A stretch of DNA of 64,000 nt, taken from UHGV virus genome UHGV-0289908; one strand, given 5' to 3'. Positions 36,003 through 54,301 of this stretch are shown here, piece by piece. How positions within the stretch are numbered: the stretch's first letter is position 1; every line of letters starts with the position of its first letter. Source of the DNA: a virus. The notes beneath the pieces were generated by a model. The model ran no database searches and had not been told where the DNA came from. It was given only the letters and a program-made list of their open reading frames with translations. A program made the position numbers and the translations under genes.

Positions 36003-37556
36003 CTACCCTCTTTCGTTTCCGTCATTTTCACGGGTTGATTCTCCCGTAGCTGACAAGTCTTCGTCTGCTACCTCTGGTCTTCCATCTTTGTCGTCTGTTA
36101 CCTCTCCATCTCCACTTTGAGTGTATGATGAGTTTAATGGAATCCAGTTGTTGTGTAATTCTAGGATATCGTTTTCTAAGAATGTTAATCCACTAATCTC
36201 TAATGGACTGCTTTGCCCAACGACTGCCGCCATTTGCATTTTTGTTGGTAACCCTAAAGTTGCGGCACTGGTTAATTGAGAAATGACTTCCTCTTTGTTA
36301 TATCCTGTCACATCTAATAGTTTGATTTTAAACATTCCATTGAAGCGACGTTTGAATTTACGGTTTAACCAACGCTCTAATGAGCGGTTAAGTTGGAACA
36401 AGATTGCTTCGTCAGTCTTGATAGAGTATTTTGTAGAAGTAGAGTTGTCTCCACCATTAAATAACATGTCTGTAACACCAATGGTATCATAGAAGTTTTG
36501 CACTGCGTCTTTAACTTTATTCTTGTTATTGTTCGCATCACGGAAACTGATATCTTTTACTGGTAATGGAGTAACAAATGTTCCAATGCTCTCATCAATA
36601 GATTGACGAGCCATGTTGTAGAATTGTAAAGCGGTTGACGCTTTAACTTCAAAGTTGTCTGGCTTCTCTGATTTTCCACTCATACGAGGGATTTCAAATG
36701 CTAATAAGCGATAGTTATTTTGTTCCGTGCTTACTTTCTCCAAGTTTTTATAGTCTTGGATATCAACGACATCTAAAGCCGCTGAAACATAGTAAGGGTA
36801 ACAATAAGGTAAATCCTCTTGTAATTTAAAACAGATAGACTTGTCTGACGGAACTTCTTGCCATTGATACAATGAACTGTCAGACTTGTACTTTGTATAT
36901 CCACTGCGGAAGAATGATGGCACAATCGTTTCATACGTGTTTAATAAAGTTTCTTCGTCATCATCGTTGTCGAAGAATGAGAAGTCAAACTCAAAATTGT
37001 AGCAAGCATCCTCTACAGATGAAATACGACAATAGTCTGGGTTTAATTGTTTAATGTAATATGAACTGTTTTTCTCGTCTTCGTACTCAATTCCATAGAA
37101 AACATCTTCTCGGAAGCAAGTTCTCTTGACTTTAACAAATTCATGTGGTATACTTAACATATCGAGATAAGCAACTGCTTTATGATAGTTCTTAGCAATA
37201 TTCTCACGATTCGTTTCAAACTTATCTACTTGAGCAGGAACAATGATGGGGCAATCAATTCCGATACTCGGTAAATAGTTAACAATACGCTTATACATAA
37301 AGCTAGTGTTTTCCAAATAGCGAGATAGTTCTCGAAGTTGTTTTTCATAATCTTGAGGAGAAGACAGATACGAAGTGATTGCGTCTCGGTCATACTCTCC
37401 GACTTTGCTAATGATTGAGTCACTTACTCGTCGGTCGTGGCGAAGTCCAAGATTCATAGACTTCATTGCACGAGCAAATTCCATCATGAACAATTCTTGT
37501 TCGGCTTGTTCTTGAGCCTGTTCTTGAAGAATTTTCTCAGTCATATCAGTAGACAT
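36003..37556 (-). CDS. Portal protein (517 aa)
   Basis: Immediately downstream of the large terminase. Size and the acidic C-terminal tail (GDGEVTDDKDGRPEVADEDL) are typical of siphovirus portals. Confidence 0.65.
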   Translation of the reverse strand: MSTDMTEKILQEQAQEQAEQELFMMEFARAMKSMNLGLRHDRRVSDSIISKVGEYDRDAITSYLSSPQDYEKQLRELSRYLENTSFMYKRIVNYLPSIGIDCPIIVPAQVDKFETNRENIAKNYHKAVAYLDMLSIPHEFVKVKRTCFREDVFYGIEYEDEKNSSYYIKQLNPDYCRISSVEDACYNFEFDFSFFDNDDDEETLLNTYETIVPSFFRSGYTKYKSDSSLYQWQEVPSDKSICFKLQEDLPYCYPYYVSAALDVVDIQDYKNLEKVSTEQNNYRLLAFEIPRMSGKSEKPDNFEVKASTALQFYNMARQSIDESIGTFVTPLPVKDISFRDANNNKNKVKDAVQNFYDTIGVTDMLFNGGDNSTSTKYSIKTDEAILFQLNRSLERWLNRKFKRRFNGMFKIKLLDVTGYNKEEVISQLTSAATLGLPTKMQMAAVVGQSSPLEISGLTFLENDILELHNNWIPLNSSYTQSGDGEVTDDKDGRPEVADEDLSATGESTRENDGNERG

Positions 37557-37570
37557 CTGTCCACCTCCTG

Positions 37571-40500
37571 TTATCTAATCTTAGGGCTAGAGAAGCAGTA
37601 TAGAGAAGCAATGTTAAAGTCTTCTTCCTCTTCTTTTGCCTTATTTTCGTGTGTCATAATATACCAAATCATATAGACAAGTGCCGAGTAACGGTCTTTG
37701 TCAATCGACTTGGAATTACGTTTTACCGTCAGCTTCCCTCCATTTAGCTGTTCAAGACTTAAGTTAGCTATCTCTTCGATAAGTAGCTCTGTCTGAACAT
37801 GAGGGAGCACTGTGCTCTTTAAGAAGTCTTGGTCTGAGTTGGCAACTACGTTCTGGTCTACTTTCTCAAGTAGCTGTAGCGTTCCATTCTCAACTAAGTT
37901 CATAAAGTTAACAATAATGTCAGTATTCAGACCTTGAGCCTGTAAAGCCCAAACACATTTTAATGCTTCTGCTTCGTCTGACTCATGTTCTGTATTGATT
38001 GTGTCGAACGCAATTAACTCTTCACCTGTTATCGGGTCAATGTGAAGTTTCATTATCTCGTCAAGTAGTCCTACGCCTAATCCGTTAATATCTATGACAA
38101 CGGTTACAGCTTTGTATAGCTTCTGTAGTCGCTTAACTGCAATGGCTTGCCCAGTGAAGTTTGTGCCGTTAGGCAGGTTGACAATGTTGACAATCTGAAT
38201 ATGATTAACCTTGTCTTTTTTATCTCGTTTAACCTTACCTACTACAATAGAGGTCTGGTTGTTGTTCGTCTTTGTAGAGCGAGCCACATCGACTCCAATA
38301 TAGTATTCGCTCTTCCCGTCAGACTTTAGCTCTGCCTTTGGAAGAGTTCGGATGTTGAATAGCTTATTTAAGTCGATGATACATGAGTCGGACGAGCCCA
38401 CCCAACGGGATTCGTAGTTAGTTGCGAAGAATGTCGGAGATAGTTTCTCCTTCTTGGCAAGTAACTGTGAACGTGTCTCTCCACGTCCATACTCGCAGGC
38501 AAGCTCCCAAGAGCTACCCAATACAATTTTACCTTTTAACTCTGCCATCTCTTTGACCATTGCTAAACAACGCTCATACTCAGTGTTCTTGAAGTATGCT
38601 GTTGTTAAGAAGTGGATTTGACCATTCATTTCACAAGGGTCTACTTGCGGATTGTAACCAATAGTACGACGAGGTACGTTGACGATTGGTTCAAGGGCAT
38701 CAGAGAAGACGAAGTCGTTAAGTAAGGCAGCCTCTTCCATCATCAAACGATGGCGACGCTTACCCTTACTTGACTGTGCATTGGCAAGAGTGCTGATAGT
38801 ACTTCCACTTGTGAAGTGAATCTCGGCATTATCTTTTGAGAATTGTGGCTTACCTACAATCTCCGCTCCGATAAGAGGGAAGAATCGCACAATCTCACTG
38901 TGTTTCTCTTCAACTAATCCTGCGGCTGCTTGCATGGTCTGAGCCGACATAGATAGGTTGATATTTGGATAGAGAATAGCTGTTACATAGAGTGCTAACA
39001 ACTCTGTAAATGTATTGTGACTAACTAATCCATTTGACACAAATGAATGAGTGTTGTCTAATGACAAGTCATACACATGAGCCTTAGAATCTTTAATGGT
39101 CTTAATCTTTGAATAGAAGTAATTTTCACACTGCAAAGATTTAAAATGCTCACAGTGTTTTGCTTCATGAAAGCGTTCATGATTTAACATTTGGTTTAAT
39201 TTTTTATAAGTGAATAAACCACCTTTGTTTGCCACTTGATATAGAGGATGACTTGATTTATTAACATTCTCCCCTATTGATTCATAGAACTCTCTAATCT
39301 TAGACTGCTGATTTGGAATAATGTCTTTTATGGTTCTTCCTTGATACTCTTTGCAGCGTTGTTCTAACAATTCTTGTTTTCTTTGACAAGAGAATCCTAT
39401 TTCATCTCTGAATTTTAGTATGTTACTTCCCGTGATGGTAATAATGTAAGATTTCGTTTGATACTGTTTGCTTATCTTTGTTCGTCTGTTTGAAATAATT
39501 CCCAAGTTCAACAATAGTGTTTGAACCTGTTTAGACATTTTTTCAGAAGCTGTGCAGAATGAAACAGCTCTGCTCTCCACTCCACCGTCTGTATCAAATA
39601 ATCCTTGCAAACATTTCACCACATATTTTTTCGGTGCTTCTAAAATAATGTTGGGGATAACCTTGGTAAAGGCATCTGACTGCGACAAACCAAGTTGTCT
39701 AAAGTATTCACGAACATATTTGCCGTTGACGACATAATCTATGCCTGTTTTACGCTGTTTAACCTCTACTCCTATGACATTGTTCATAAAAGAGTGGTAG
39801 CGTTCCACCATATCTTGGTCTTTTGATGTAAAGAGGATGATGTTATCTCTTGTCAAGCAGCCATCTCCTAAAAGATAGCCAATTATCAGAGCTAAGTCCT
39901 CAGTTAATTCCGTCGGAGTGTTGCATTTGTTTTTTTCAATTTTCCATTTAGAGTCTCCACCAAAAGAATTTAACCACGAGTGCATATCAAAAGTCAATTT
40001 GGTTCTGCTACCCCAAACATTATCTCCTCGGCTTGTGATTAAATAATCTCCGACATGTAAATCCTCTGTTCGTTTCCAGTCAATATTTCCATCTGTTGTC
40101 ATAACTAGCACGGGGTGGTTTAACGAAGGTTCAATTTCAATACCTTCCTCGGTATATATTTTCTTTGTGTCCTTATATCCACTATACACCCCTGCAATGA
40201 CATTCTCCATCTGTTTATGACGATTGCTCACTGTCATTTGTTTAGGAATTATGTATGTTTCAACATTATCATCTTGATAATTAAAGTACGACCCAATCTC
40301 TTTAACTCCCTCGTTTGTTAAAATTAATGTATCGCCAGATACACATTTTCCATATCCACGTGGGAATACCCCGTAGACAGAAGCGAAACGGACTAGAACA
40401 CGAATGAACACTCGTTGGTCTAAGTCGAGTCGGATACCCCCTGTCTCGGGCGTAATTAGGTCGAGAAAGAGGTCGGGGAAAAAGCGAGCCCACGAAATGA

Positions 40501-40621
40501 ACTCTACCCATTTATCTAAATTCTGTTGAAATTTATCTCCATCTGGGTTAGAATAATATGGTATCCCAGTTTTTGGATTGATTACTTTTTCAATAATCTG
40601 CTTGGCTTCTTCTTTATTCAT
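37571..40621 (-). CDS. Terminase large subunit precursor (1016 aa) containing a 444-aa intein
   Basis: Exteins join to give the P-loop FPRGYGK|TFTELL (Walker A GxGKT). Nuclease-domain-like C-terminal half. 572 aa once the intein is removed. Confidence 0.8.
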   Translation of the reverse strand: MNKEEAKQIIEKVINPKTGIPYYSNPDGDKFQQNLDKWVEFISWARFFPDLFLDLITPETGGIRLDLDQRVFIRVLVRFASVYGVFPRGYGKCVSGDTLILTNEGVKEIGSYFNYQDDNVETYIIPKQMTVSNRHKQMENVIAGVYSGYKDTKKIYTEEGIEIEPSLNHPVLVMTTDGNIDWKRTEDLHVGDYLITSRGDNVWGSRTKLTFDMHSWLNSFGGDSKWKIEKNKCNTPTELTEDLALIIGYLLGDGCLTRDNIILFTSKDQDMVERYHSFMNNVIGVEVKQRKTGIDYVVNGKYVREYFRQLGLSQSDAFTKVIPNIILEAPKKYVVKCLQGLFDTDGGVESRAVSFCTASEKMSKQVQTLLLNLGIISNRRTKISKQYQTKSYIITITGSNILKFRDEIGFSCQRKQELLEQRCKEYQGRTIKDIIPNQQSKIREFYESIGENVNKSSHPLYQVANKGGLFTYKKLNQMLNHERFHEAKHCEHFKSLQCENYFYSKIKTIKDSKAHVYDLSLDNTHSFVSNGLVSHNTFTELLALYVTAILYPNINLSMSAQTMQAAAGLVEEKHSEIVRFFPLIGAEIVGKPQFSKDNAEIHFTSGSTISTLANAQSSKGKRRHRLMMEEAALLNDFVFSDALEPIVNVPRRTIGYNPQVDPCEMNGQIHFLTTAYFKNTEYERCLAMVKEMAELKGKIVLGSSWELACEYGRGETRSQLLAKKEKLSPTFFATNYESRWVGSSDSCIIDLNKLFNIRTLPKAELKSDGKSEYYIGVDVARSTKTNNNQTSIVVGKVKRDKKDKVNHIQIVNIVNLPNGTNFTGQAIAVKRLQKLYKAVTVVIDINGLGVGLLDEIMKLHIDPITGEELIAFDTINTEHESDEAEALKCVWALQAQGLNTDIIVNFMNLVENGTLQLLEKVDQNVVANSDQDFLKSTVLPHVQTELLIEEIANLSLEQLNGGKLTVKRNSKSIDKDRYSALVYMIWYIMTHENKAKEEEEDFNIASLYCFSSPKIR
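39014..40345 (-). mobile_element. Intein with a LAGLIDADG homing-endonuclease domain, inserted in the terminase P-loop
   Basis: Begins Cys (CVSGDTLILTNEG, block A) immediately after GYGK. Ends ..VSHN followed by Thr. LAGLIDADG blocks LLGDGCL and LFDTDGGV. Codon boundaries were verified on the DNA (TGT at 40343-40345, CAC AAT then ACA at 39011-39019). Confidence 0.8.
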
Positions 40622-41592
40622 TATAAGTCCTCACTTTCTGACTCTGTGTCTTGTGAGCGACTATAATCAGCTTTACGTTGTTCTAAGAAGTCATAAATTT
40701 CAGAATATTCGCAGTCTGGCAAGTTTTGCATTTTGCGAATGTAGTTGATATAACACCACAGAGTAAAGTCTACCTTATCCTGTGGTTTCTCAATGAACCG
40801 AGGTAGGATAGGGATAACATCAACCGCCTGTTCAACGGCACGTGTTAATTCTCCGAACCCACTAAGCCCCGATGTTAGGTCGTTCTTAGATAACTGACTC
40901 GGGTTGATACGAGCCGAAGTTGCCTGTTTCTGAGCTGCGTCTGCCCATTTTGACGCTTCTTTAAGGTCTCCTCTAGCAGTTGCAAACTCTTCTTTCACAC
41001 GGAAACGACAATATGTAATTAATGCTTCCGTATGTAGAGCTGTATACTCTGGATAGCTTGCTCGTAACTGATTGTATTTTCGGTCAATGGCAATAAGCTC
41101 TTCATCTGTATAACCGAATCCATAAGTCTCTGTAAACTTATAGCGTCGCTCTGGTGACAATTTGTATACATCTGTACGCTCCACTGCTTTGTCATTCATT
41201 AACTTTTCTTCACTTTCGGTAAACATACTATCATCCCAAGTGAAGTCTCGGTACTGGTGCATGGCAATGTCTTTCCAGTACTTCCCGATGATGGCACGTG
41301 GCTCATCATATTTGTTTGCATTTGTTACAAACACATGGTGAATATAAGGTCTGTCTAGTTGCTGTAATGTGCGTTTTAGATTGTCCATATCAATGGCACT
41401 CTTTTCTTCGTTAAGACACTTTTCAACTACACAAGCCTTACAGTATGGCATAAGCCCAGAAGCGGACTTAAAGCTCTTATAGAACTCTGTAGTACGCTTC
41501 TCAGTATTACATTCTGTGCATGTAATCTTTTTAATCTCTGGCTTTTCTTTTTTGGGCACTTTAATAGTACTTAAATCTTTTTTCCGAGACAT
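40621..41592 (-). CDS. Putative terminase small subunit / zinc-ribbon DNA-binding protein (323 aa)
   Basis: Directly upstream of TerL and overlapping it. N-terminal CxxC-x21-CxxC. Confidence 0.4.
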   Translation of the reverse strand: MSRKKDLSTIKVPKKEKPEIKKITCTECNTEKRTTEFYKSFKSASGLMPYCKACVVEKCLNEEKSAIDMDNLKRTLQQLDRPYIHHVFVTNANKYDEPRAIIGKYWKDIAMHQYRDFTWDDSMFTESEEKLMNDKAVERTDVYKLSPERRYKFTETYGFGYTDEELIAIDRKYNQLRASYPEYTALHTEALITYCRFRVKEEFATARGDLKEASKWADAAQKQATSARINPSQLSKNDLTSGLSGFGELTRAVEQAVDVIPILPRFIEKPQDKVDFTLWCYINYIRKMQNLPDCEYSEIYDFLEQRKADYSRSQDTESESEDL

Positions 41593-41642
41593 GATAGCTC
41601 CTCCTTCTTTAAGGAGCTATAGCCCAACTCGATAACTCCTTA

Positions 41643-42821
41643 CTATTTTAAAATAATTTCGTGCAACACTCGACTGCCATCTGCATAATATACAACAAGT
41701 GTTTGTGATGGGTCGTTATTATAACGTTGTCGGTTGGCGAATGTGTCACTACCACATAAGCAACCGTTAATTACAGTGTTGTAAACGGTTTGGAAGTTGT
41801 GGAAATGTCCTAGGTGGACATAGTCAACGTCCATGTTCAAATATTCAGAGAGATTCTTTACTGCATCTTGAGGTTTCTTGCAGTTGTGCCCATGCTCTAA
41901 TGCAACGACACGACCATTACCCAATGTGTAGACTTCAACTTCTTGGTCTACTCCACTCTTCTCGAACTCCATTCCAGTTCGAGCAGTAACTCCCCATTCA
42001 ATTAAGCGAGTAAAGTTTTCCTCATGTAAATGCTCTTTATAGTTGGCATTGATTCTGTCATGATTCCCTGTAACGCTGTGTAGGCGAATGTGTTCTACAC
42101 TAGGAGCTAGTGCTTCGATTGTTAAGCTGATTAGCTCACAAGCGAAACCAACCTGCTCCACAATGTCCATCTGTTGATAGATGCGTGTTGTCGTATGGAT
42201 TAACCCCGACAAAATGTCTCCACAGATGTCAATATTAAGCGTTTTCACGTTGTGCATTTTACAGTACTTGATTGTTTCTCCAACTAAGTGTTCAACTCGT
42301 TTCGTTGCTATCTCTTGATTGAAGTGATTGTGAGGGGTATCAATCCCTAACCCCAAGTGCCAGTCTGACAAGATTAGGCATGCTTCTACATCGCTGTCCA
42401 CCTTTTTGTGGACAATGTTTAAAGTAGGCTTTGCTTTCATTGCTTCAACAATGGCTTCTGCTAGTGCTTCCCAACGTGCTTCCCAACGTAAACGAGTGTT
42501 AATTTCTCGTTGAACATCTTGAAGTCGAACACGCTCTTTGAATAATTCTCTTTTCTTGGCTTCAATGTCTAACATTAAATCGCTACCCGCACTCTCTGAT
42601 TGTGCGTTTGCAACTAATTGAACCATTTCATCATCTAATTGTTCAAGTAGTGGTTTTACAATGTAGTATGCTTTTCTCCCATTGTCGCTTGAGCAGTCAT
42701 AGTCACAAATGGCTTTAGCCCATTCCGAGTAATCCATGTCATACTCTTTGCGATTGTCTGTGATACGTTTAACATACTGCCATTGTGTTTCATCTGTGCG
42801 TTTTCTTAAAATCTCGCTCAC
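41643..42821 (-). CDS. Calcineurin-like metallophosphoesterase (392 aa)
   Basis: Ordered motifs SDWHLG, DICGD, VTGNHD, LEHGH and GHFH fit the phosphoesterase signature (DxH .. GD .. GNHD/E .. H .. GH .. GxH). Confidence 0.7.
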   Translation of the reverse strand: MSEILRKRTDETQWQYVKRITDNRKEYDMDYSEWAKAICDYDCSSDNGRKAYYIVKPLLEQLDDEMVQLVANAQSESAGSDLMLDIEAKKRELFKERVRLQDVQREINTRLRWEARWEALAEAIVEAMKAKPTLNIVHKKVDSDVEACLILSDWHLGLGIDTPHNHFNQEIATKRVEHLVGETIKYCKMHNVKTLNIDICGDILSGLIHTTTRIYQQMDIVEQVGFACELISLTIEALAPSVEHIRLHSVTGNHDRINANYKEHLHEENFTRLIEWGVTARTGMEFEKSGVDQEVEVYTLGNGRVVALEHGHNCKKPQDAVKNLSEYLNMDVDYVHLGHFHNFQTVYNTVINGCLCGSDTFANRQRYNNDPSQTLVVYYADGSRVLHEIILK

Positions 42822-42839
42822 CTTAAAATCCTCCCAGAA

Positions 42840-43094
42840 TTATTTAGTAATAACTAAGGTTTTCATTGGTTCTCCTAAGCTATCATAGTTGTCAGAAGTA
42901 TAGTCTAATAAAATCTCTTCTACCATGTAGCAGTCGTAACCCATGTTTTCAAAATGCTTATATACTTCGTCCATATCAATATGTACTAAGTCATATAAGT
43001 CGTCCCCCATGAAATGTAACTCTGCACGGTCTTCGCCTTCTTTTAATAATTCTGTTCCTAATTCAATTAATGCTTCGGCAGTATATGCGTCCAT
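42840..43094 (-). CDS. Hypothetical acidic protein (84 aa)
   Basis: ORF from the track. Confidence 0.4.
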   Translation of the reverse strand: MDAYTAEALIELGTELLKEGEDRAELHFMGDDLYDLVHIDMDEVYKHFENMGYDCYMVEEILLDYTSDNYDSLGEPMKTLVITK

Positions 43095-43969
43095 TTAAAA
43101 TCACTCCTCTTAAAATCAAAGTCTCAAAACCATCTACCTTAAAGCAGATAAACAGTTTTGAGACTAGGAAGTCTCTATTGTGCAACACCTTGAGCTTCTT
43201 CTACCCTTAAGGCATTGTCTTATTGGTTTGGACAATCAAGCCCATTTCATGTATACTTCCAAGAAATCAATCTTGAAAGGCTAGTTGACGTTGCGTCTTC
43301 CGTTGAGCTTTATTTATTTTACCATTGTCACGCTCTATGACAACAAAGTGTGACTTGTTCCACTATTCTTTATTTTAAGCTAGTCTTAATGGCATAGACT
43401 AGAATCATTATAGGAAACAATGGGTAGTAACACAAACTTAATCGCCCTACCACCCATCCAAAACACTAGGTTTTATAGTTTACAATGGCTTCAACTTTTA
43501 ATTTGTTCCGACACTAGATAAATGTGAGTTGACAACACAATCGGGATTCTTCCCTCGCCAACATGGAGAACTTGTTCCATTAAGACTATTTCAAGTGTCA
43601 CACAATTACAACATAGCCCTCTGTGAGTAAGCACAAGTAGTGTGGTTATTGTAACTTAACGTGCCTGTGGATAATGACCTAGGACGGCTTGACAGTGGTT
43701 GCGACCCTCGTCTGACAAGTCTTACACTCCCTATGTCCAATAAACAACTACGCTAGCTTAATCGCCCGTAGGTTCTGCGTGTACAGTTAGAACACCTCAC
43801 GACTACAGTAGTTATATTTTCTGTCGCACTCTGCAAGCGACTGTCTAGCCCATATGTCTAGCATTAATGATGACAATAAGACTATGGATTGTCGCTATAC
43901 ACGTAGGTCATCACCCCTACGTATGCTCCCCTCTAGCCAAAAGCATGGTGGTCTAATGACCATGTTAAT

Positions 43970-44046
43970 TGGGGTTTCCTGTTGGATTCGAACCAACGAT
44001 AGCTCGGTTATGAGCCGAGAGCTTTGACCGACTAAGCTAAGGAAAC
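43970..44046 (-). tRNA. tRNA-Met (anticodon CAT; could be an initiator, elongator or lysidine-Ile type), CCA encoded
   Basis: Hand-folded reverse complement: acceptor GTTTCCT/AGGAAAC, D stem GCTT/AAGC, anticodon stem CTCGG/CCGAG with loop CTCATAA, T arm GTTGG-TTCGAAT-CCAAC, then C-CCA. Confidence 0.75.
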
Positions 44047-44424
44047 AAAATAAAAAGAATGACCCTCATGACAGCCACGTGGATAGCAGGAGAAAGAGTT
44101 TCAGCTCCCTTAGCCATTACTCGTGGATTTTTATGTAAGTTTAAAGTATCATCTTTCAGCTTTGTAGTATAAATAGCTTTGAAGTTTCAACTTTCAACTT
44201 TAAACCTTCAACTTTGAGCTTTTCCCATGTATAAGTATTTACCCTTGCTCCGACGACTCTCTGCGTCTAGCCGTAAATCTTCCATTTATCTGTATTGTTC
44301 TATAGATAAGCACTTTTGCCCAATATAAGTAGAAAGTAACGATTTATTAACCCAAAACCGTTGGAAAGGGGAATCTCTCTTTGTGCCACTTCGTCACAAG
44401 GGTCATATTATTTATCTAGTCAAA

Positions 44425-45098: not shown

Positions 45099-45172
45099 TG
45101 GTGCTCCTACTCAGAATTGAACTGAGATTTCATCATTACCATTGATGTGTTCTGCCATTGAACTATAAGAGC
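45099..45172 (-). tRNA. tRNA-Thr (anticodon GGT), CCA encoded
   Basis: Reverse complement: acceptor GCTCTTA/TAGGAGC, D stem GTTC/GAAC, anticodon stem CATCA/TGATG with loop ATGGTAA, T arm CTCAG-TTCAATT-CTGAG, then A-CCA. Confidence 0.7.
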
Positions 45173-45218: not shown

Positions 45219-45310
45219 TGGCGGACAGGGTGGAATTCGAATCCACGCACGACTAAAAGCCGTCTAATGCCTTAGCAGGGCACCCTCTTAAGCCACTTGA
45301 GTACCTATCC
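45219..45310 (-). tRNA. tRNA-Ser (anticodon GCT), class II with a long variable arm, CCA encoded
   Basis: Reverse complement: acceptor GGATAGG/CCTGTCC (one G-U pair), anticodon stem GTGCC/GGCAT with loop CTGCTAA, ~20-nt variable arm, T arm GTGGA-TTCGAAT-TCCAC, then G-CCA. Confidence 0.65.
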
Positions 45311-46524: not shown

Positions 46525-46543
46525 GGGTGTTCTTCCTCCTCGT

Positions 46544-46765
46544 TTACATAAAGCAGTCGTCAGTTGCAACTTCTTCGTCTAAATCTTTCTCAGCTTTTGC
46601 TTGGAATGATAATACTCCGTGTTTGTTATCAGCGTTTGCTAATAAATCTTGGATGAAGCAAACTCCTTCATCTTCTGTTTCGATTGTCATGTCGTCAACA
46701 TTTAAAGTCCCAGTGACTTTGATGGTATGAGTTTCGACAATCTTTTCTTGAATTGATTTTGCCAT
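46544..46765 (-). CDS. Hypothetical acidic protein (73 aa)
   Basis: ORF from the track. Overlaps only the spurious N-terminal extension of the lipoprotein ORF. Confidence 0.4.
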   Translation of the reverse strand: MAKSIQEKIVETHTIKVTGTLNVDDMTIETEDEGVCFIQDLLANADNKHGVLSFQAKAEKDLDEEVATDDCFM

Positions 46766-46785: not shown

Positions 46786-47079
46786 CTAGTTCATCTTTTT
46801 AAAGCGTTCTGTAATGGTGGCTTTAAGCCCCGTATATGGGGGAGATGTTACTCGTTCGCCATTCAGAATGCGAGTCGCTTCTGGTTTGTTCTGCTTATTG
46901 AAGACTACTAGGTCTCCAAATTTAACTGAGTCATAATCTTCTAATGACTCTAAGATTACTCCCTGCACTGTGTCAATGACAAGTGAGGTTGCTTCTTGAG
47001 AGATGTCTAGTCGTCGTGACAATAAGCGAATGAACTCTTGCTTTGGCATTTTCTTAGGTTTCTTTTTCGCCTTTGGCAC
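46786..47079 (-). CDS. HU/IHF-like histone-like DNA-binding protein with a Lys-rich N-terminal tail (97 aa)
   Basis: Alignable to the HU fold: helix-helix N-terminal half, then ..VKFGDLVVFNKQNKPEATRILNGERVTSPPYTGLKATITERFK matching the GFGxFxV..arm..P motif. The N-terminal MPKAKKKPKKMPK tail is an add-on. Confidence 0.55.
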   Translation of the reverse strand: MPKAKKKPKKMPKQEFIRLLSRRLDISQEATSLVIDTVQGVILESLEDYDSVKFGDLVVFNKQNKPEATRILNGERVTSPPYTGLKATITERFKKMN

Positions 47080-47298
47080 TTAAAATCCTCCTTAAAATTT
47101 ATTTGTATGTCATGTTTGTTAAGTCTAATTAAAAAGAGCGACACTAGGTCGCCCATACATAAAAGGAAAAGAGAGAGAATGAAAAATGAAATGAAACATG
47201 GAGGGCGAGACACTTGTCCCTATATTCCCCTCCACGTAAAGAAAATGGACTAAAATCGCTAGAGCCCAAGTACTTCTTGGGCTCGAGGGCATTTTCTA

Positions 47299-48066
47299 TT
47301 ACTCTACTTTTTCATTTTTTCGGTTTTTTCGTGCTTTTTCTGCACTTACTCTTTTGTGCTCTCGTTGTTTCTCTTTGGTACATTCGGAGCAATATTTGGT
47401 TTTATTCCCCTTTATTATTACTCGCTTACCACACTCTTTGCAGTTGATGACTTTTGCTCCCTTATATGTACAATAATCCACAATAAAGTCTTCAAAAGAA
47501 GTAATTGTCATAGCGGGCTCACCTTCAAAATCAATATAATTAATTTTCATAGCACACTTTCCAGAGCGGACAGAGTTAAACACATACCCCAATTCCTCAA
47601 GTGTCCCAATCATCAGTTCTCGATTTACGGAGTTGCGATTCACTTTAATGTCCTTAAATAACTCGGAAGAGTTCTTTAACACTATCCACTCTCCGTTTCT
47701 TCCCTTGGCTTTATTGTCTATCTTTAATAGTACAAGTAATCCAAAAGCTAGACGCTCCAGTGCTTCATTTTTTAACATTCCGATTGCATTAAGTTCTGTT
47801 TGGGTAATGTGGATTTGTTCTACAGCGTTTAATTTAGAATCCTGTTTTGATTTGATGTCTCGTTTCAACTTCATCTTCCATGCTTTAGAGTTCCCCGTTG
47901 CTTCTTCCATGAATTCCATCATCTTATCCATTACCTCTTCTGGGGATAGTCCTAAGTGATAGAAGTATTTAATTAAAACAGATATCTCAGTAGACGGTTT
48001 GCTACTGAGCTGTTTAGTTTCTAAAATCTGTTCTGCGTATTTTTTCTCATTTGGAATAATTTTCAT
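47299..48066 (-). CDS. Hypothetical protein with a C-terminal zinc ribbon (CKECGKR..CSECTK), 255 aa
   Basis: ORF from the track. Immediately downstream of the RNAP-like gene. Confidence 0.45.
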   Translation of the reverse strand: MKIIPNEKKYAEQILETKQLSSKPSTEISVLIKYFYHLGLSPEEVMDKMMEFMEEATGNSKAWKMKLKRDIKSKQDSKLNAVEQIHITQTELNAIGMLKNEALERLAFGLLVLLKIDNKAKGRNGEWIVLKNSSELFKDIKVNRNSVNRELMIGTLEELGYVFNSVRSGKCAMKINYIDFEGEPAMTITSFEDFIVDYCTYKGAKVINCKECGKRVIIKGNKTKYCSECTKEKQREHKRVSAEKARKNRKNEKVE

Positions 48067-48067: not shown

Positions 48068-50821
48068 CTACTCTTCCTCCTTGAAATGCTTTGACCGTTT
48101 TGTGTGCATAGTAAATGTCATTCCTTTAAATTCAAATTCCCCTGTTGCTGACTGAATTGGATATGAGATTTGCCCTTGGTTTCTTTTCAGTAAGTTTTTA
48201 ATAATCTGTTCTCCGCACACATTCCATACGACATATTTTGACTTGTTTGAAGAATAACAAATATCAATCATAATATTGCATAAAGTTTCCTCATTGGTGC
48301 ATACTACAAGCAGGTCATTTTTAAATCTCTCTGTTAAGCGATTTTCAATGTCTGCTCGTTCATTTGAGGACATCTTCTGTTTAACCGATGTCTGATAGAA
48401 CTTCTTAAGGTCGTCAATGTACTGCTCGTACAATGCAGCAACCTTCTTAGCCATACTACGTTTGTATTCAACATTAGGCGATTTCAGAATTTCTTTGTCG
48501 AACTCTGTCTTGCGTGTGTCGAGCTTGACTTGCTGAAACACCTCTTCAACGTGCCAACAGATTTTGTTCATCAGACAAGCTGTCTCGTCTATAGGAAGTT
48601 GCTTTTTGAAGAAGTGAAGAGATTTTTCTTCCTCTTCTGTTCTGTCTGTTGACGCAATGATTTCGTCCATTGACTTCTTGAACTTGCGTCGGCAACGAAT
48701 GTTCTCACTCTTCACATAATCCATGTAATCCTTGCGTAGCTTTGGATAGATGTAAGTGAAGAAATATGGTTTTTTATCTGCCACTAATTGACGATTAAAC
48801 TCTTTAAAAGCGACTACCTCTTCCGAGTCTGTGTCCGAAGGCATTAAAGGTTGATAGCTTATCCATGACTTAGGAATCCCACCAGAGGTTTCAATCCCTT
48901 TTGCTACGTCAATACTTTCTTGACTGTGTAGAATGGAAGACATAATTCGATAATCCAACTCTTCCCATTCTGGAGTCCCAAAGTCAAATCTCGCTTGAAT
49001 ACTTTGAATACATGTTGCCTTGTTTGTAATAACTCCAACATTCTCTGTCTTGCTTGCGAGCAATAACTTGTCAGAACGAATGTAGTCTTCTTCTGAACAC
49101 ATTTGCTTTTGAGCACTCTTTTGAAGGCAAATAACTGGCAAGGTGTCTCTTATCCCTTTCATAATGTATTCATTGTTTGTAATGAAAACGGTATCACCAT
49201 CACAGTCCATCCCCGATAGTCTAGGACATGTTGCGTCATAGGCATTTAGAACGTACAGCTCCCCAATGTGCTGATACCATTTTGCCATCTCTTCTGTGCA
49301 AACAATTTCAGCCTTACCAATGTTGTTATGAGAGACCATAGGTGCTCGGAACATCCCAACCTCTGACACTCCTTTGTCCACCCAGAATTTAGAATAAAAT
49401 TGTCCAGATTTTAATAACCCTTTCACTTCCATTCCAAACATGTTCTCTGCCAAACATATAGGGTCAATAGTTACCGTTTGGTAATTTCCTTGTACTTTGA
49501 TTTTCCCAATCTTGGTTTCGTCAATTCGTTTCTTTATCATGTTGTTGATAGATGTTCTAACATAAGGGTCGTTGATTAACTCTGGCTCAATCATAAGAGC
49601 ACTAGCGTAATCATATGTATTGATATCTGTATTTTCAGACATCCCAATTCCTTTTAAGTATGCTAAAGATTTTCTAGGGTCTAGCCCTTTTACCTCAATT
49701 ATCTCATCTATCGTCGGTTGAATAAGAGCATATATCTCTTCATCTGTTAAATCTAAAGACTGAATGAACTGATAGTTGGTATCTCGAACCTCGTCCAATA
49801 CCTTTGGAGTTTGCTTTGTGACACTAAATGTGTATTTGTTTTCTACACAACATCTATGATAGTGCTCCCATGAATCATAACTGTCCCACAACTTGAGCAT
49901 TGAGGTTGTGATTACTAGGTCAACATCATCAACATTCCACTCTTTATCCCAAACATCTACAATGACCTCTTTGTTCGCTTTCTCTTTTGCAAACATCTTA
50001 AAGTCGAACACTAGGGCTACTCCTTTTAAGAAAGAATTCCTAATAATAAAACCGCTCGGAGTGTAATCTAGGTGCAGGTCTTTAGCCCAAACCTTCGCAA
50101 ATTCGGGAGAGATAAAACCAGAGCCGTCGCTCGCATTTAGATTCATTTCATAATCTTCAATAACTCGCTTGTGTGGTCGTCCATCTGTTACTTCTCCTAA
50201 TTCGATAACGCTTGTTTTGAAATTCGTTTCCACATCGTGTACAATACAAACGTTAGGGGTGTCGGTTACTGGGTTACTAGCACTCATTGTTAAGCTACGA
50301 TAGGCACTTAATTTTGCAGGAACAAATTCTTTGTCATTACGACCATTGTCAATGCGTCTTTGTAATTCGTCTAAAATGGTTTCGTCCGCATAGAACACTT
50401 CTCCCTTTTTAATTGAAGCAGGAGTGGATAGGAAACGTTTGTATCGTGTTCCATTTATCACAAATCCTCGGTTAATTAAATCATAGTGTTTTGATTTATC
50501 AATCTTGACACACACAAGATACTTCAAGAACAATATTTTGTCCAACTCTTGTTTCAGCGAAACGTATCTTTTACTATTGGCTTTATTATGCCCTTCCTGT
50601 GTTAAGTGAAAAATCTCTCTTTTGAGTTGTTGAACACGCTCTTCTTCATATCCCGTCTTGGCAATGTCGTCAATACTTCTAATAACATACGAAGAAGCAA
50701 GTCCAACAATCCACCCTTCCTCTAATAGTTCGTCCATTTCAAGTTTTAAAGACATGTTAGAGTCAACAATCTCAGTGCTTGGAATTTTTATAATTTTTCT
50801 TATTGAATATAGGTTGCTCAC
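48068..50821 (-). CDS. Single-chain two-barrel (YonO/QDE-1-like) RNA polymerase homologue (917 aa)
   Basis: Beta-prime-type DPBB signature: FRAPMVSH at residues 491-498, then 40 residues later MDCDGD (DxDGD) at 538-543, compared with NRAPTLHR...NADFDGD of multisubunit beta-prime. An upstream beta-type barrel candidate RNSFLKGV (residues 261-268) compares with RHGNKGV. Confidence 0.6.
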   Translation of the reverse strand: MSNLYSIRKIIKIPSTEIVDSNMSLKLEMDELLEEGWIVGLASSYVIRSIDDIAKTGYEEERVQQLKREIFHLTQEGHNKANSKRYVSLKQELDKILFLKYLVCVKIDKSKHYDLINRGFVINGTRYKRFLSTPASIKKGEVFYADETILDELQRRIDNGRNDKEFVPAKLSAYRSLTMSASNPVTDTPNVCIVHDVETNFKTSVIELGEVTDGRPHKRVIEDYEMNLNASDGSGFISPEFAKVWAKDLHLDYTPSGFIIRNSFLKGVALVFDFKMFAKEKANKEVIVDVWDKEWNVDDVDLVITTSMLKLWDSYDSWEHYHRCCVENKYTFSVTKQTPKVLDEVRDTNYQFIQSLDLTDEEIYALIQPTIDEIIEVKGLDPRKSLAYLKGIGMSENTDINTYDYASALMIEPELINDPYVRTSINNMIKKRIDETKIGKIKVQGNYQTVTIDPICLAENMFGMEVKGLLKSGQFYSKFWVDKGVSEVGMFRAPMVSHNNIGKAEIVCTEEMAKWYQHIGELYVLNAYDATCPRLSGMDCDGDTVFITNNEYIMKGIRDTLPVICLQKSAQKQMCSEEDYIRSDKLLLASKTENVGVITNKATCIQSIQARFDFGTPEWEELDYRIMSSILHSQESIDVAKGIETSGGIPKSWISYQPLMPSDTDSEEVVAFKEFNRQLVADKKPYFFTYIYPKLRKDYMDYVKSENIRCRRKFKKSMDEIIASTDRTEEEEKSLHFFKKQLPIDETACLMNKICWHVEEVFQQVKLDTRKTEFDKEILKSPNVEYKRSMAKKVAALYEQYIDDLKKFYQTSVKQKMSSNERADIENRLTERFKNDLLVVCTNEETLCNIMIDICYSSNKSKYVVWNVCGEQIIKNLLKRNQGQISYPIQSATGEFEFKGMTFTMHTKRSKHFKEEE

Positions 50822-51645
50822 TATTTTTTCATCTCCTTTTTCACTCTCTCTTGTACTCCATTTGCCTTTTGATAATACCGCTGTGCCTGTTCTTTGAATT
50901 TGGAAGGAGATTGCTTTTTACGAGAATGAGGTTGACGCTTCTCAAGAAGTCTCATGCAATAACTCGACACATCTTCAATCTCGTTGTTAACAAACTCTTT
51001 TTTCAATGACTCTGCACGGTCGCTTATCAAAGCATTTAAGCATGAACACCATTCGGTGGCGAAGAGCTGTCCTTGATTAAGGATTAAGATACGCTCACTT
51101 ACGTGTTCAACGATTCTTTTGAGCTCTGCTTTTGCAGTACTTGGAATCAAAGGGTCAATCTGTGTTATCATGGTTTTAATCTCCTTATGTCCTAATTGTT
51201 CCTTGTTCGATTCCTCAATCATTCGTTTTATTTCACACAGTCCTATAAACAACTGTAATTGTCGTCGTATGTCTTTTTCGATTTGATTTTGGGTTCTTCG
51301 CTCTTCTGAAACTGAATGGTTGTTTCCTCCAAGTTGAACATTATAGCCCTTGTTGTTGTTGGTTGAGTCGTAATACTCTATCCAGAATTTTTCCTTTTCG
51401 TTTAATTCCGCAACTGTTAGTCCACGGTCAATTATTTCAACAATGAAGTTTTCCGCTCCGTATTTTCTAATGGAGTTTGCTAGGTATAGGTTTACTTTTG
51501 GAGAATTTGCGATTCTCTCCACTCCCACTCCTTTCCCACAATATCTTTTATTGAAGGTCTTTTGGGTTTGTCCTATGTACACTTTTCCGTTTACTTGATT
51601 TGTAACCTTGTATATAATCATGGTTTCCGTTTCAAGTGCTTTCAT
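50821..51645 (-). CDS. GIY-YIG homing endonuclease (about 274 aa from the corrected start)
   Basis: Track ORF 50821..51714. The likely start is the ATG at 51645, after AAGGAG. Motif MIIYKVTNQVNGKVYIGQT...NKRY...YGAENFIVEII...N matches the GIY-YIG catalytic core. The C-terminal half is helical (a likely DNA-binding module). Confidence 0.7.
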   Translation of the reverse strand: MKALETETMIIYKVTNQVNGKVYIGQTQKTFNKRYCGKGVGVERIANSPKVNLYLANSIRKYGAENFIVEIIDRGLTVAELNEKEKFWIEYYDSTNNNKGYNVQLGGNNHSVSEERRTQNQIEKDIRRQLQLFIGLCEIKRMIEESNKEQLGHKEIKTMITQIDPLIPSTAKAELKRIVEHVSERILILNQGQLFATEWCSCLNALISDRAESLKKEFVNNEIEDVSSYCMRLLEKRQPHSRKKQSPSKFKEQAQRYYQKANGVQERVKKEMKK

Positions 51646-51662
51646 CTCTCTACTCCTTTGTC

Positions 51663-51917
51663 TTATCCAATAAAAATAATTTTCACTTCTTCTCCTGTAA
51701 TACGACAGTAACAATCTGCTACTCGACCCGAATCACGGATGAAATCAACAATCGACTCTGTTAATTCTTCAACGTATTCAATCTTGTCTTTTTTTTCGTC
51801 CCCAAATCCTAAGAAGCGGTTCGGGGTAAAATACATACAACCATACCCCACTCTCGTTTGTACCTTGAACTCTTTTCCTACCATGGACGCTAAAACCATA
51901 CTGTCTAGCTTAGTCAT
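51663..51917 (-). CDS. Hypothetical protein (84 aa)
   Basis: ORF from the track. Confidence 0.4.
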   Translation of the reverse strand: MTKLDSMVLASMVGKEFKVQTRVGYGCMYFTPNRFLGFGDEKKDKIEYVEELTESIVDFIRDSGRVADCYCRITGEEVKIIFIG

Positions 51918-52037
51918 AAATATAAACCTCCTTTTGTCTTGTTTGTATTGGGAGAAACTTCCAGTTCACCCCTATACTTATATTATAACTTGATTGGTGT
52001 TTTTTATCAATTCGTTTTATAATATTTAAGCGAAAGA

Positions 52038-52838: not shown

Positions 52839-53057
52839 TTCATTCTTTCTCCTTTATGTATTTTTCAGACATGCCCTCAGAAGCCATATAAGGCGATTTA
52901 AGAAGGCTAAGTATAACGATGATTAATTTATCGACCGAAACGCTATCTCTTCTCAGAGAGCCTTAAAATGCGTCTCAGAGGTATTCTAGAGTTGCAAAAC
53001 TCCGTATTTGAAGTTCTCATCGACATATTTGATTATAGCATTATTTGTCACTATTTG

Positions 53058-54128
53058 TCAAGAGGTTTTTCGTTCTTTTAATTTTTCTTTTATTTTGGGT
53101 TCAAGATGGGTTTTTTGAGAGACATCTCCACAGGCTCTAAAAAGGACTTTCCCATCTTCTTTCCACTTTTTTGAGAGAATGCTCCGACTCGCTCTGTCCT
53201 TGTACCCTAACAAGGGCTTATCCTTTTCTACTTTCGATTGTTTGCGAGCAAATGTTTGTTCATTACTGGTTCGAGAGATGGCATTGATTCTGGAAGTCAA
53301 TGAGTCAATGGTAATTCCCAATTCTTGTTGTTGTTGATAACGTTCTTTTACCATTTCTTCATATCCTTCACTGATGGCTATTTCGTAACACTTGTAATAG
53401 AAACGAATTCCAATTTCCTTAAGACCTTCATTCACATTTCGGATATATTCTCCCCAACGTCCATCTGCAATAATGGCACTTTCCCCGCTACGTAAATCGT
53501 ACCCCATGTGTTTCATAGCACCGTGACGAACATTGATGATATTTGCCAAATCTCCCCCAGTTGCTTCATGGTACTCTCCTTGAGTATCACAGAAGACAAT
53601 GATATCCCGTTTAATTAAACGACCTTGACTTTCCATTCTTTTAAACATCGTTTGAATTCTGTCGTCAGCTTTATCATAAGTTCTTTCAAAGAAATATCGA
53701 GTGGCAATAGAAGAAGTACCCAATAACTTCTCTGTGATGTCTTGATTCTTATAGCAAATGTTAAAGTTGTGATTTACATAGCCCAAGGATTGAAATAGAT
53801 TGAGCTTCGTGATTCGTAACACCCTAGAATTCCCGTTAACCTGTTCAGCATTGGCTAATAGGTTAATCATGACTTCCTCGGATAAGTCCTGTAATTCAGA
53901 CCTACGGGTTCTAACAACAGGAGTTGCTTCACCAGTAACTTCGGTAATGATGTATTTATGACCTGCACGTGTCCATTTGCAATATTGCTCCAATGTTTTC
54001 ATTTGTGCTTTCCAACTGTCGCTTCCACCTTTGTAGATTGTCCATCCCATAATAGCACAAATCTCTTTATAGTTCTTAAATTCACGTCCGACCCAAAGTT
54101 CGGATTTATTAACCTTGTACTTACTCAT
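53058..54128 (-). CDS. Hypothetical protein (356 aa), first gene of the leftward gene train
   Basis: ORF from the track, downstream of the leftward promoter at 54273-54301. Confidence 0.5.
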   Translation of the reverse strand: MSKYKVNKSELWVGREFKNYKEICAIMGWTIYKGGSDSWKAQMKTLEQYCKWTRAGHKYIITEVTGEATPVVRTRRSELQDLSEEVMINLLANAEQVNGNSRVLRITKLNLFQSLGYVNHNFNICYKNQDITEKLLGTSSIATRYFFERTYDKADDRIQTMFKRMESQGRLIKRDIIVFCDTQGEYHEATGGDLANIINVRHGAMKHMGYDLRSGESAIIADGRWGEYIRNVNEGLKEIGIRFYYKCYEIAISEGYEEMVKERYQQQQELGITIDSLTSRINAISRTSNEQTFARKQSKVEKDKPLLGYKDRASRSILSKKWKEDGKVLFRACGDVSQKTHLEPKIKEKLKERKTS

Positions 54129-54272: not shown

Positions 54273-54301
54273 ATTTTATAATATTTAAGCACAGTTGTCA
54301 A
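54273..54301 (-). promoter_or_regulatory. Leftward sigma-A-type promoter
   Basis: On the minus strand: TTGACA (54301-54296), 17 nt, TAAAAT (54278-54273). Confidence 0.5.

Follow-up and report, generated by a model that had tools for sequence, protein, structure and literature searches.

We found that the window, by which we mean the whole 64,000-nucleotide stretch of the virus genome UHGV-0289908 that was analysed, encodes a further member of the YonO family of RNA polymerases (RNAPs), a family that is already known and biochemically characterised (PMC5467207). The explanation that best accounts for the locus as a whole, and that we regard as very likely, is a YonO-type RNAP that transcribes the late gene cluster with the help of a probable partner factor. 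The original prediction of a YonO/QDE-1-like single-chain, two-barrel RNAP is supported by sequence homology, predicted fold and synteny.

The catalytic subunit is specified by an intact 917-aa open reading frame (ORF) at 48068..50821 on the minus strand with a GTG start, exactly as first called. Its motifs were also located correctly, as FRAPMVSH occupies residues 491-498 and MDCDGD residues 538-543, the second starting 40 residues past the end of the first as claimed, and the metal-loop aspartates are indeed D539, D541 and D543. The upstream element needs correction from R-x3-KGV to R-x4-KGV, since it reads RNSFLKGV (R261, K266-G267-V268). In a BLASTP alignment of residues 114-605 with YonO of SPbeta (27% identity over ~500 residues, 6e-35), these motifs align one-to-one with RLPWVKGL, LRSPHLFREH and FDNDGD of YonO, and because of this alignment they are, on sequence grounds, not chance matches. 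Residues R261, K266, G267, R492, A493, P494, D539, D541, D543 and D232 are invariant among 73 homologues of 38-84% identity. Two-barrel RNAPs share eight invariant residues: the beta-like barrel supplies two Arg/Lys and the beta-prime-like barrel the R-x-P, and the other four are Asp, among them those of the DxDxD loop (PMC2919709). All eight are kept here, with D232, R261 and K266 in the beta-like barrel and R492, P494 and D539/D541/D543 in the beta-prime-like barrel, and their spacings are 29, 5, 2 and 47 compared with 29, 5, 2 and 45 in QDE-1, where the equivalents are D709, R738, K743, R962, P964 and D1007/1009/1011 (PMC2919709). By this correspondence, the catalytic Mg2+ ions would be bound by D539/D541/D543 and D232, with R261, K266 and R492 as predicted substrate contacts.

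The rest of the protein had been described as unrecognisable and its family as one that escapes standard annotation, and neither description is correct. Indeed, ordinary BLAST detects the YonO family (tblastn/BLASTP matches to YonO from 2e-28 to 6e-35) and PHROG families span the entire polymerase. A profile built from the 73 homologues finds YonO at 5.9e-57 and aligns a further block at YonO 686-791, and the confident part of the YonO alignment ends near residue 605, save for one C-terminal block. Pfam, NCBIfam and PDB sequence searches returned no match for the polymerase, and the family is visible through PHROGs, BLAST and fold comparison only. No near-identical DNA was found in deposited phages, nor any nucleotide-level similarity to c-st, PMBT24 or BUCT082.

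The role of YonO was reportedly predicted in 2003. It was identified in 2017 as the DNA-dependent RNAP of the late genes of SPbeta, a Bacillus subtilis prophage (Forrest et al., PMC5467207), is strictly DNA-dependent and dependent on its Asp triad, and strongly prefers DNA templates. Transcription of 37 late SPbeta genes, from a single start site upstream of yonK, depends on it, and it is the only characterised prokaryotic member (PMC5467207).

The AF2 model of the window polymerase is confident over its full length (pLDDT 91.2, pTM 0.85), and its fold agrees with an active site formed by two DPBB domains. Comparison of this model with RNAP barrels by Foldseek, a check suggested along with the original prediction, gave RDR2 and QDE-1 as the best PDB matches (E 1e-17 to 1e-12, probability 1.0, TM 0.4-0.5). 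Weaker matches to phage P74-26 gp62 (5e-5) and RNAP beta-prime (~1e-3) came next, and matches in BFVD include 0305phi8-36 gp99 and crAss phi14:2 gp66 (8e-4).

The polymerase is followed by a partner gene of 255 aa (47299..48066, minus strand), whose ATG lies 1 nt past the polymerase stop codon and whose Shine-Dalgarno sequence, AAGGAGG, sits within the last polymerase codons. Its sequence contains a CxxC...CxxC ribbon, in agreement with the zinc-ribbon neighbour first proposed, and its model comprises an N-terminal helical domain, a winged helix (~100-176), the Zn ribbon (C209, C212, C226, C229) and a basic C-terminal helix. The partner gene is found directly 3' of the polymerase in effectively 75/75 evaluable genome loci, the commonest arrangement being a 4-nt overlap; it is also directly downstream in nine phage and metagenome loci, as in the window, and likewise in c-st, PMBT24 and BUCT082. 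This pairing spans hosts from Paenibacillus to Lachnospiraceae and polymerase identities down to 29%, and the partner family contains 1514 representative clusters. The 84-aa ORF upstream of the polymerase was considered as a third conserved member and rejected, as it is upstream in only 4 of the 88 loci with room for it.

The partner profile matches the C-termini of YonO (i-E 5e-9) and of the Perkons polymerase (2e-9), which were the only long-ORF matches among 11,977 six-frame segments (E ~2e-5). A separate partner gene is absent in both SPbeta and Perkons; the C-terminus of the window polymerase has no cysteine pairs, and the ribbon is encoded in the next ORF. Judging from these profile matches, the C-terminal module of the partner and the fused C-terminal parts of YonO and the Perkons enzyme are homologous. 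It should be noted that only ~40 residues align confidently between YonO and the partner and that CxxC-type ribbons are common, so part of this similarity could reflect a shared zinc-finger type. In the annotation of c-st, CST177 already bore the label 'YonO homolog (C-ter only)'. Because of the strict gene pairing and of the module fused in YonO and Perkons, the partner is probably a second polymerase subunit or an initiation factor. No sequence homology to initiation factors was detectable for the partner, and its winged-helix similarity is generic.

Conversely, the polymerase might act alone, the partner being an independent, co-transcribed DNA-binding regulator (repressor or activator) or a replication or packaging factor. 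Phage regulators are commonly winged-helix or zinc-ribbon proteins, the partner homologue of TR-TP1 has no ribbon, and YonO, published as a 'single-peptide' enzyme, elongates unaided in vitro (PMC5467207), although YonO alone is not known to initiate at promoters. In addition, the P_YonO/leader regions of BUCT082 and SPbeta are 94% identical despite different polymerase modules, and promoter choice could lie outside the polymerase-partner pair. An independent regulator would, however, have to account for a strict, overlapping pairing across such distant hosts and polymerases and for a C-terminal module that is part of the polymerase in SPbeta and Perkons, the very phages that lack the separate gene, and we consider it rather unlikely. 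If the partner is a subunit or factor of the polymerase, long-form YonO-type polymerases may, as a tentative proposal that goes further, be obligate two-subunit enzymes composed of a minimal catalytic chain with two barrels and a winged-helix/Zn-ribbon initiation factor that recognises late promoters, with the fused ribbon of YonO as a remnant of this factor. In prophages of Lachnospiraceae, Oscillospiraceae and Paenibacillus, the long form is the usual one.

Past the partner gene lies a gene for an HU/IHF-like DNA-binding protein of 97 aa (46786..47079, minus strand; phrog_379), the positional counterpart of SPbeta yonN. It matches Pfam Bac_DNA_binding (PF00216) at 4.1e-7, with 30.6 bits against a cutoff of 22.4, which confirms the HU-like neighbour. 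An HU-like gene also comes after the polymerase module in SPbeta, BUCT082, c-st, PMBT24, Perkons and TR-TP1, and a crude HMM detected one in at least 22/75 loci. It is a frequent, not obligatory, accessory, and its link to the polymerase is looser than that of the partner. The dedicated late-transcription system that had been proposed, with both neighbours as components, is plausible, and strict pairing and the YonO fusion strengthen it for the zinc-ribbon protein.

A hairpin with a 9-bp stem (GAGCCCAAG/CTTGGGCTC), read from the sequence at 47262..47284 (minus strand), lies 15 nt past the partner stop and is a candidate for the end of the polymerase-partner operon. Its T tract is weak, and it was missed by the automated terminator scan, which found a terminator-like hairpin with a T run at 47136..47154 (minus strand), between the partner and HU-like genes. 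In SPbeta, a stem-loop is annotated directly after yonO.

Three minus-strand sigma-70-type sites are located upstream of the polymerase operon. The first (51982..52010; TTGATA-17-TATAAT, 11/12) precedes the 84-aa ORF, a homing endonuclease, the polymerase and the partner genes, and the second (53032..53061; TTGACA-18-TG-TATAAT), upstream of a Bro-N/Ant gene, has the perfect consensus (12/12); both were identified as consensus matches only. The third (54273..54301; 11/12) is at the head of the minus-strand block and adjoins the strand switch. No minus-strand site of at least 11/12 was found in 1-40000, and it is in this sense only that the structural train is free of sigma-70 promoters, as had been stated. 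The polymerase gene had also been placed at the head of the late operon; the host RNAP instead probably reads it as an early or middle gene.

All family-matched ORFs (phage or Pfam) of at least 90 aa between 1142 and 54128 are on the minus strand, so that the predicted same-strand structural train downstream of the polymerase does exist, and their products include an exonuclease, terminase, portal, and virion and tail proteins. The start of the presumed polymerase-dependent late operon (36003..43094, minus strand; PHROGs and BLASTP) has an 84-aa ORF as its first gene and includes genes for a YonJ-like exonuclease (41643-42821; BLASTP vs YonJ 4e-23), a YonG-like protein (40621-41592; BLASTP vs YonG 3e-19), a large terminase with an intein (37571-40621) and a portal (36003-37556), the last two assigned through PHROGs, as were the virion and tail genes that continue on the same strand from the portal to ~1142. 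The succession of polymerase, HU-like gene, long ORF-poor gap, YonJ-like, YonG-like, terminase and portal genes is syntenic with SPbeta, and an SPbeta-like layout is also seen in relatives of 42-84% identity.

The ORF-poor region upstream of the first late genes (43095..44424, minus strand; 1.33 kb) contains a tRNA-Met, two conserved non-coding blocks, a '6A' Rfam motif and a 20-bp hairpin. By analogy with the yonN-yonK gap of SPbeta, it is here that the polymerase's own promoter and a long leader are most likely to lie. Placed with the published primers, the late start site of SPbeta falls at L001 ~9950-10135, about 1.2-1.4 kb ahead of yonK, and the SPbeta late transcript opens with a long non-coding stretch. 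No sequence similarity was found between the window gap and the late leader of SPbeta or BUCT082. A search for a shared promoter motif among 9-12 nt k-mers in the intergenic DNA past the polymerase-partner pair of 89 loci gave none that was recurrent; the best-shared occurred in at most 9/89 loci, probably close relatives. Likewise, the window's own minus-strand intergenic 12-mers (at most 1 mismatch) yielded just ribosome-binding sites and AT-rich strings. The conserved blocks (43485-43939) were rejected as a structured RNA, with no Rfam match at E<=1 and a folding z of +0.5 vs shuffles, and their exact core sequence occurs in only two IMG/VR contigs.

This non-coding region, with its tRNAs and conserved blocks, together with the long non-coding start of the SPbeta late transcript, would also suit an enzyme whose product is not late mRNA but a specialised RNA, for instance a primer for replication or a long non-coding transcript of the tRNA-containing gap. 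We find this improbable, as deletion of yonO silences 37 structural and lysis genes in SPbeta (PMC5467207) and the late-gene layout here matches that of SPbeta.

The name under which these genes are often deposited would imply yet another function. The records of PMBT24, TR-TP1 and Perkons label the polymerase 'RNA-dependent RNA polymerase', many homologues of 40-74% identity carry a precomputed match to the Pfam RdRP family PF05183, and the closest solved structures, those of RDR2 and QDE-1, are of RNA-dependent enzymes. An enzyme that copies or amplifies RNA, for example in RNA-based regulation or anti-defence, instead of transcribing DNA is nonetheless very improbable, since YonO prefers DNA and is needed for late mRNA synthesis (PMC5467207) and the gene occupies the yonO syntenic slot in a dsDNA phage. 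The labels go back to the name of the Pfam family, with no assay behind them; PF05183 does not match the window protein itself at E<=0.1, and the label is probably misleading for these phage genes. Finally, a chance resemblance of the motifs, or a gene that has decayed to an inactive relic, is hardly credible: nothing but the shortness of the motifs as first reported speaks for it, and it is contradicted by very small E-values, invariant catalytic residues, an intact ORF and a model that is confident along its full length.

Returning to a YonO-type RNAP with a partner factor, we propose that the host sigma-A RNAP would first read the polymerase-partner operon from the consensus promoters at ~52-54 kb and stop at the hairpins past the partner gene. 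The phage enzyme would then initiate in the ORF-poor region at ~43-44.4 kb, the ribbon of the partner docking on the polymerase while its winged helix and basic helix bind promoter DNA, and would read the ~43-kb minus-strand late cluster (exonuclease, terminase, portal, head and tail) into a very long transcript, or a few of them, in the manner of YonO in SPbeta. The HU-like protein may act by bending or coating the template.

No smaller relatives of cellular RNAPs are known than the YonO-type enzymes, which serve as a model for the ancestral two-barrel polymerase. A further divergent member, here from an uncultivated SPbeta-like phage, is unsurprising in itself; the comparative result is that most of the family comes as a polymerase gene strictly paired with that of a winged-helix/Zn-ribbon protein, and not as a single peptide, which makes the partner a concrete candidate for the missing promoter-recognition factor. 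If the pair were obligate, it would represent a 'core plus initiation factor' system reduced to its essentials, with a factor comparable to sigma or TFE/TFIIB, and would answer the 2017 question of how YonO-type enzymes find their promoters. Cultivable relatives are available in BUCT082, on B. subtilis, and PMBT24, on Enterocloster bolteae.

Among known systems, YonO shares with the window polymerase a homologous core with RxxxxKG, RxP and DxDGD, the genomic slot ahead of the HU-like gene and the YonJ/YonG/terminase/portal cluster and, probably, by analogy, the role of late-gene DNA-dependent RNAP. It differs in its length (839 aa vs 917 aa), in being mostly unalignable past residue 605, and in having its own C-terminal Zn ribbon and basic tail with no partner gene, whereas in the window this module ends a separate 255-aa protein that adds a helical domain and a winged helix, both absent from YonO. 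Although the window enzyme is not a single peptide in this sense, it represents a split, long-form architecture within the YonO family, which is no ground for exclusion. The same architecture of a polymerase and a 240-280-aa partner, usually then an HU-like gene, is found in Clostridium phage c-st (CST179/178 and CST177), Enterocloster phage PMBT24 and Bacillus phage BUCT082, whose polymerases have 29-38% identity over the full length to that of the window and whose records label the genes hypothetical or 'RdRP'. The c-st polymerase gene is interrupted within the DxDGD codons, and a search of this split gene for a group I intron gave no Rfam match at the gathering threshold. In BUCT082, a member of Spbetavirus, a window-type long polymerase and partner replace YonO.

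The more distant eukaryotic enzymes QDE-1 and RDR2 (PF05183) are likewise single chains with two barrels and the eight shared residues at nearly identical spacing, but have ~12-15% identity to the window polymerase in structural alignments; they copy RNA for silencing, whereas the enzyme of this dsDNA phage is, by analogy, most likely DNA-dependent. The phi14:2 virion RNAP gp66 and gp62 of Thermus phages P74-26/P23-45 are minimal two-barrel polymerases for their phages' own transcription, and their fold matches to the window polymerase (8e-4 and 5e-5) are weak but significant; they belong to other families, with no sequence homology and no common gene context. As gp66 forms one domain of a giant protein that is packaged in the virion, whereas the window polymerase is a stand-alone gene outside the virion module, and as its fold match is weak, identity as a crAss-type virion RNAP was rejected. 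Equivalents of the trigger loop, clamp and flap of multisubunit RNAP beta/beta-prime were not recognised in the window polymerase. As for the partner, initiation factors such as sigma and TFE/TFIIE-alpha provide an analogy only.

The polymerase gene lies at 48068..50821 and encodes 917 aa, as originally predicted; it is on the minus strand and starts with GTG. The two catalytic motifs named in that prediction are also in place: FRAPMVSH at residues 491-498 and MDCDGD at residues 538-543, the latter supplying the aspartates D539, D541, and D543. The predicted upstream element is present as RNSFLKGV, but its spacing is R261-x4-K266-G-V and not R-x3-KGV. Ten residues (D232, R261, K266, G267, R492, A493, P494, D539, D541, and D543) show no variation across 73 aligned relatives (38-84% identity). 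All eight residues that define two-barrel RNAPs, with QDE-1 as the reference (PMC2919709), were found in the protein, at spacings of 29, 5, 2, and 47 residues versus 29, 5, 2, and 45 in QDE-1. These motifs are more than a coincidence.

Searches of Pfam, NCBIfam, and PDB sequences with the polymerase gave no match, and the three PHROG families that cover the whole protein are of unassigned function in PHROG. A tblastn search against deposited phages returned 41 records, including SPbeta and its relatives, where the matched gene is yonO and is in some cases annotated as "DNA-directed RNA polymerase". Pairwise BLASTP against SPbeta YonO (6e-35, residues 114-605) pairs RNSFLKGV with RLPWVKGL, FRAPMVSH with LRSPHLFREH, and MDCDGD with FDNDGD. 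At E<=1e-5, at least 3161 relatives were found in the protein database; the closest genome matches are Lachnospiraceae MAGs (48% identity), and we take the phage host to be an uncultivated Firmicute. According to PMC2919709, Iyer et al. 2003 connected YonO-like proteins with the two-barrel superfamily, a link reviewed in 2010.

An AlphaFold2 model built from the 73-sequence alignment (pLDDT 91.2, pTM 0.85) matched, in a Foldseek search of the PDB, plant RDR2 and fungal QDE-1 best (E 1e-17 to 1e-12, probability 1.0, TM 0.4-0.5), followed by Thermus phage P74-26 gp62 (5e-5) and then bacterial RNAP beta-prime chains (~1e-3). Among predicted viral structures, phage proteins labelled RdRP and 0305phi8-36 gp99 were matched, as were, more weakly, crAss phi14:2 gp66 and poxvirus RNAP large subunits. 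Model and matches bear out the predicted double-psi beta-barrel fold, with no confident placement in an unrelated family. The identification of the gene as a bona fide YonO-type two-barrel RNA polymerase of an SPbeta-like phage is thus supported, and the enzyme is probably active.

The predicted zinc-ribbon neighbor is a 255-aa ORF (47299-48066) with a CxxC...CxxC ribbon, which begins 1 nt past the polymerase stop and has its Shine-Dalgarno within the last polymerase codons. A homolog of this partner was directly downstream of the polymerase in 9/9 fetched phage or metagenome loci of the long form, in which the two genes are separate. Species-representative genomes (Lachnospiraceae, Oscillospiraceae, Paenibacillus, Cohnella, Anaerovorax, and others) supplied 80 loci, of which 75 could be evaluated: the two genes were strictly adjacent in 71, and the other 4 also carry the partner gene, with a larger overlap because the ORF caller over-extends start codons. 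An overlap of 4 nt is the most frequent arrangement. The large partner family, for which there is no Pfam model, comprises 1514 representative clusters at E<=1e-3.

YonO ends in a ribbon and a basic tail, neither of which is found in the window polymerase. A profile of 80 partner sequences matched the C-termini of YonO (i-E 5e-9) and of the Psychrobacillus phage Perkons polymerase (2e-9); the same two C-termini (E 2.6e-5 and 1.4e-5, respectively) were the only significant long-ORF matches of a ribbon-only profile among 11,977 six-frame segments. SPbeta and Perkons have no separate partner gene, and an HU-like gene directly follows their polymerase. The annotators of the c-st record had noted the likeness of CST177 to the YonO C-terminus. 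Strict pairing combined with fusion is classic evidence and points to a functional, probably physical, partnership. We somewhat favor a promoter-specificity or initiation factor as the role of the partner, although only ~40 residues align confidently, CxxC ribbons of this type are common, and the TR-TP1 partner homolog has no ribbon.

The HU-like neighbor was also confirmed: the 97-aa ORF (46786-47079) scores above the Pfam HU/IHF cutoff (30.6 vs 22.4 bits). It is a looser companion of the polymerase than the partner, being found within 4 kb in at least 22/75 loci with a crude HMM. The same-strand structural train holds as well: every family-matching ORF from ~1.1 to 54.1 kb is on the minus strand, with PHROG matches to exonuclease, large terminase, portal, virion proteins, and tail proteins. 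Four of its ORFs are very large and encode 2639 aa (2845-10764), 1326 aa (11916-15896), 1138 aa (15933-19349; minor tail and virion protein PHROG matches), and 2186 aa (20189-26749). The large terminase (37571-40621, minus strand) reaches 1016 aa because of an inserted intein with a LAGLIDADG endonuclease (residues ~100-536). The terminase of the related locus L011 also carries such an intein; in L007, a phage contig that is 84% related, two group I introns lie in this region instead.

In SPbeta, the order is yonO, a stem-loop, yonN (HU-like), a 1.7-kb gap, yonK, yonJ (exonuclease), yonG, and yonF (terminase). The window copies this layout: polymerase and partner, hairpins, and the HU-like gene are followed by a 73-aa ORF, a Bmp lipoprotein gene, tRNAs, a 210-aa ORF, and a 1.33-kb ORF-poor gap, and then by an 84-aa ORF, exonuclease, a YonG-like protein, terminase, and portal. 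The exonuclease matches YonJ at 4e-23 and the YonG-like protein matches YonG at 3e-19 (BLASTP). Gene order is kept in relatives with 42-84% polymerase identity, whose genes match the Pfam YonJ, YonG, YonD, and YonB families. Between the HU-like and late genes, all on the minus strand, are tRNA-Met(CAT) (43970-44046), tRNA-Thr(GGT) (45099-45172), tRNA-Ser(GCT) (45219-45310), and the Bmp/PnrA-family substrate-binding lipoprotein gene (45418-46569; Pfam 1.3e-68). Related loci also have tRNA clusters at the equivalent place; the lipoprotein gene is likewise conserved in position in three of them (L005, L007, and L009) and therefore looks like a conserved "moron" gene.

Mobile endonuclease genes cluster near the polymerase gene. 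A GIY-YIG gene (50821-51714, minus strand) is wedged between the polymerase start and another 84-aa ORF upstream, and two flank the polymerase-partner pair on both sides in L011 (3390-4121 and 7659-8456). The c-st polymerase ORF is broken exactly within its DxDGD codons by ~370 bp (L004 7653-8022), and in Enterocloster CB-type phages the polymerase match is split in two over 3.4 kb. A Pistol self-cleaving ribozyme (RF02679, 60.8 bits, gathering 34.5) lies in the plus-strand early region at 58357-58423, and L007 has a second copy (2805-2868, minus strand).

YonO is a processive, strictly DNA-dependent RNAP whose activity is abolished by changing the Asp triad to Asn; without yonO, no infective SPbeta is produced (Forrest et al. 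2017, PMC5467207). It is required for 37 late (structural and lysis) genes in one operon with a start site upstream of yonK, and the authors left undecided whether YonO finds promoters alone or with other factors (PMC5467207). Our search of the literature after 2017 found nothing on YonO promoter finding or on long-form relatives. By matching the published primer-extension oligos to the SPbeta sequence (forward, L001 9922-9945; reverse, L001 ~10139-10165, with one extra T in the record), we placed the YonO-dependent start at L001 ~9950-10135, ~300-470 nt past yonN and 1.2-1.4 kb upstream of yonK. The SPbeta late transcript therefore begins with a long leader that is not translated. The Rfam DUF3800-VIII RNA motif occurs in the late leaders of SPbeta (L001 11021-11086), ~260 nt upstream of yonK, and of phage BUCT082 (L003 8632-8697), and probably belongs to the "unannotated non-coding RNA" of Forrest et al. 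In c-st, the HU-like gene has a RAGATH-18 motif just ahead of it (L004 11941-12001).

In position, the window gap (43095-44424) is the equivalent of the SPbeta start-site region. No similarity to the SPbeta leader was detected, nor any common promoter motif across loci or within the window. Two gap blocks (43485-43741 and 43864-43939, minus strand) are 76-92% identical to non-coding DNA in L009 (17080-17298, 17519-17587) and L011 (9836-10021, 10239-10314), loci whose polymerases are only ~50% identical (aa). Block order varies between loci, and the blocks are absent from the closer relative L007. No Rfam family was matched, folding is no better than in shuffles (z +0.5), and only 2 IMG/VR contigs contain the exact core. 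A "6A RNA" motif (43298-43348, minus strand), ~200-250 nt upstream of the first late ORF, is barely above the Rfam threshold (42.5 vs 41.2 bits), was not found in related loci, and overlaps a sigma-70-like site (TTGTCA-16-TGgTAAAAT, 43343-43316); the match may be a DNA promoter element, not RNA. A long hairpin (43120-43165, minus strand; 20 pairs by terminator scan, G-T allowed) and the T-rich stretch after it directly precede the 84-aa ORF ahead of the exonuclease gene.

The only coding-strand sigma-70-type sites at 11-12/12 consensus are three that lie ahead of the polymerase operon (54301, 53061, and 52010). The prediction that the train is free of sigma-70-like promoters thus holds for sites of this quality between 1 and 40 kb, where total site counts are close to those of shuffled sequence. 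This distribution, seen in consensus scans only, fits a scheme in which host RNAP would express the polymerase, which would then transcribe the late genes. At ~54.1-57.3 kb, GC/AT skew changes sign and coding passes from the minus to the plus strand, which looks like a divergent early-promoter region comparable to yonR/yonP in SPbeta.

Since the YonO-type kind is already known and biochemically characterized, the polymerase adds a member, not a kind. Of most interest to us is that the polymerase is strictly associated with a winged-helix/Zn-ribbon partner, part of which is fused in YonO; this goes beyond the literature found and is directly testable. The B. subtilis Spbetavirus BUCT082 carries a polymerase of the window type with a partner gene; this polymerase is 29.5% identical to that of the window over its full length and 25% to YonO. 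The late promoter/leader of BUCT082 shares 94% identity with its SPbeta counterpart over 1555 nt (L001 9847-11380 vs L003 7447-8996). The two phages thus differ in polymerase sub-type, fused in SPbeta and split in BUCT082, despite a common promoter region, which suggests that the polymerase unit has been exchanged as a module or that promoter recognition is tolerant of either form; specificity could also lie elsewhere than in the polymerase-partner pair. As the BUCT082 long-form polymerase sits beside an SPbeta-like promoter, the long-form enzyme occupies the functional slot of YonO.
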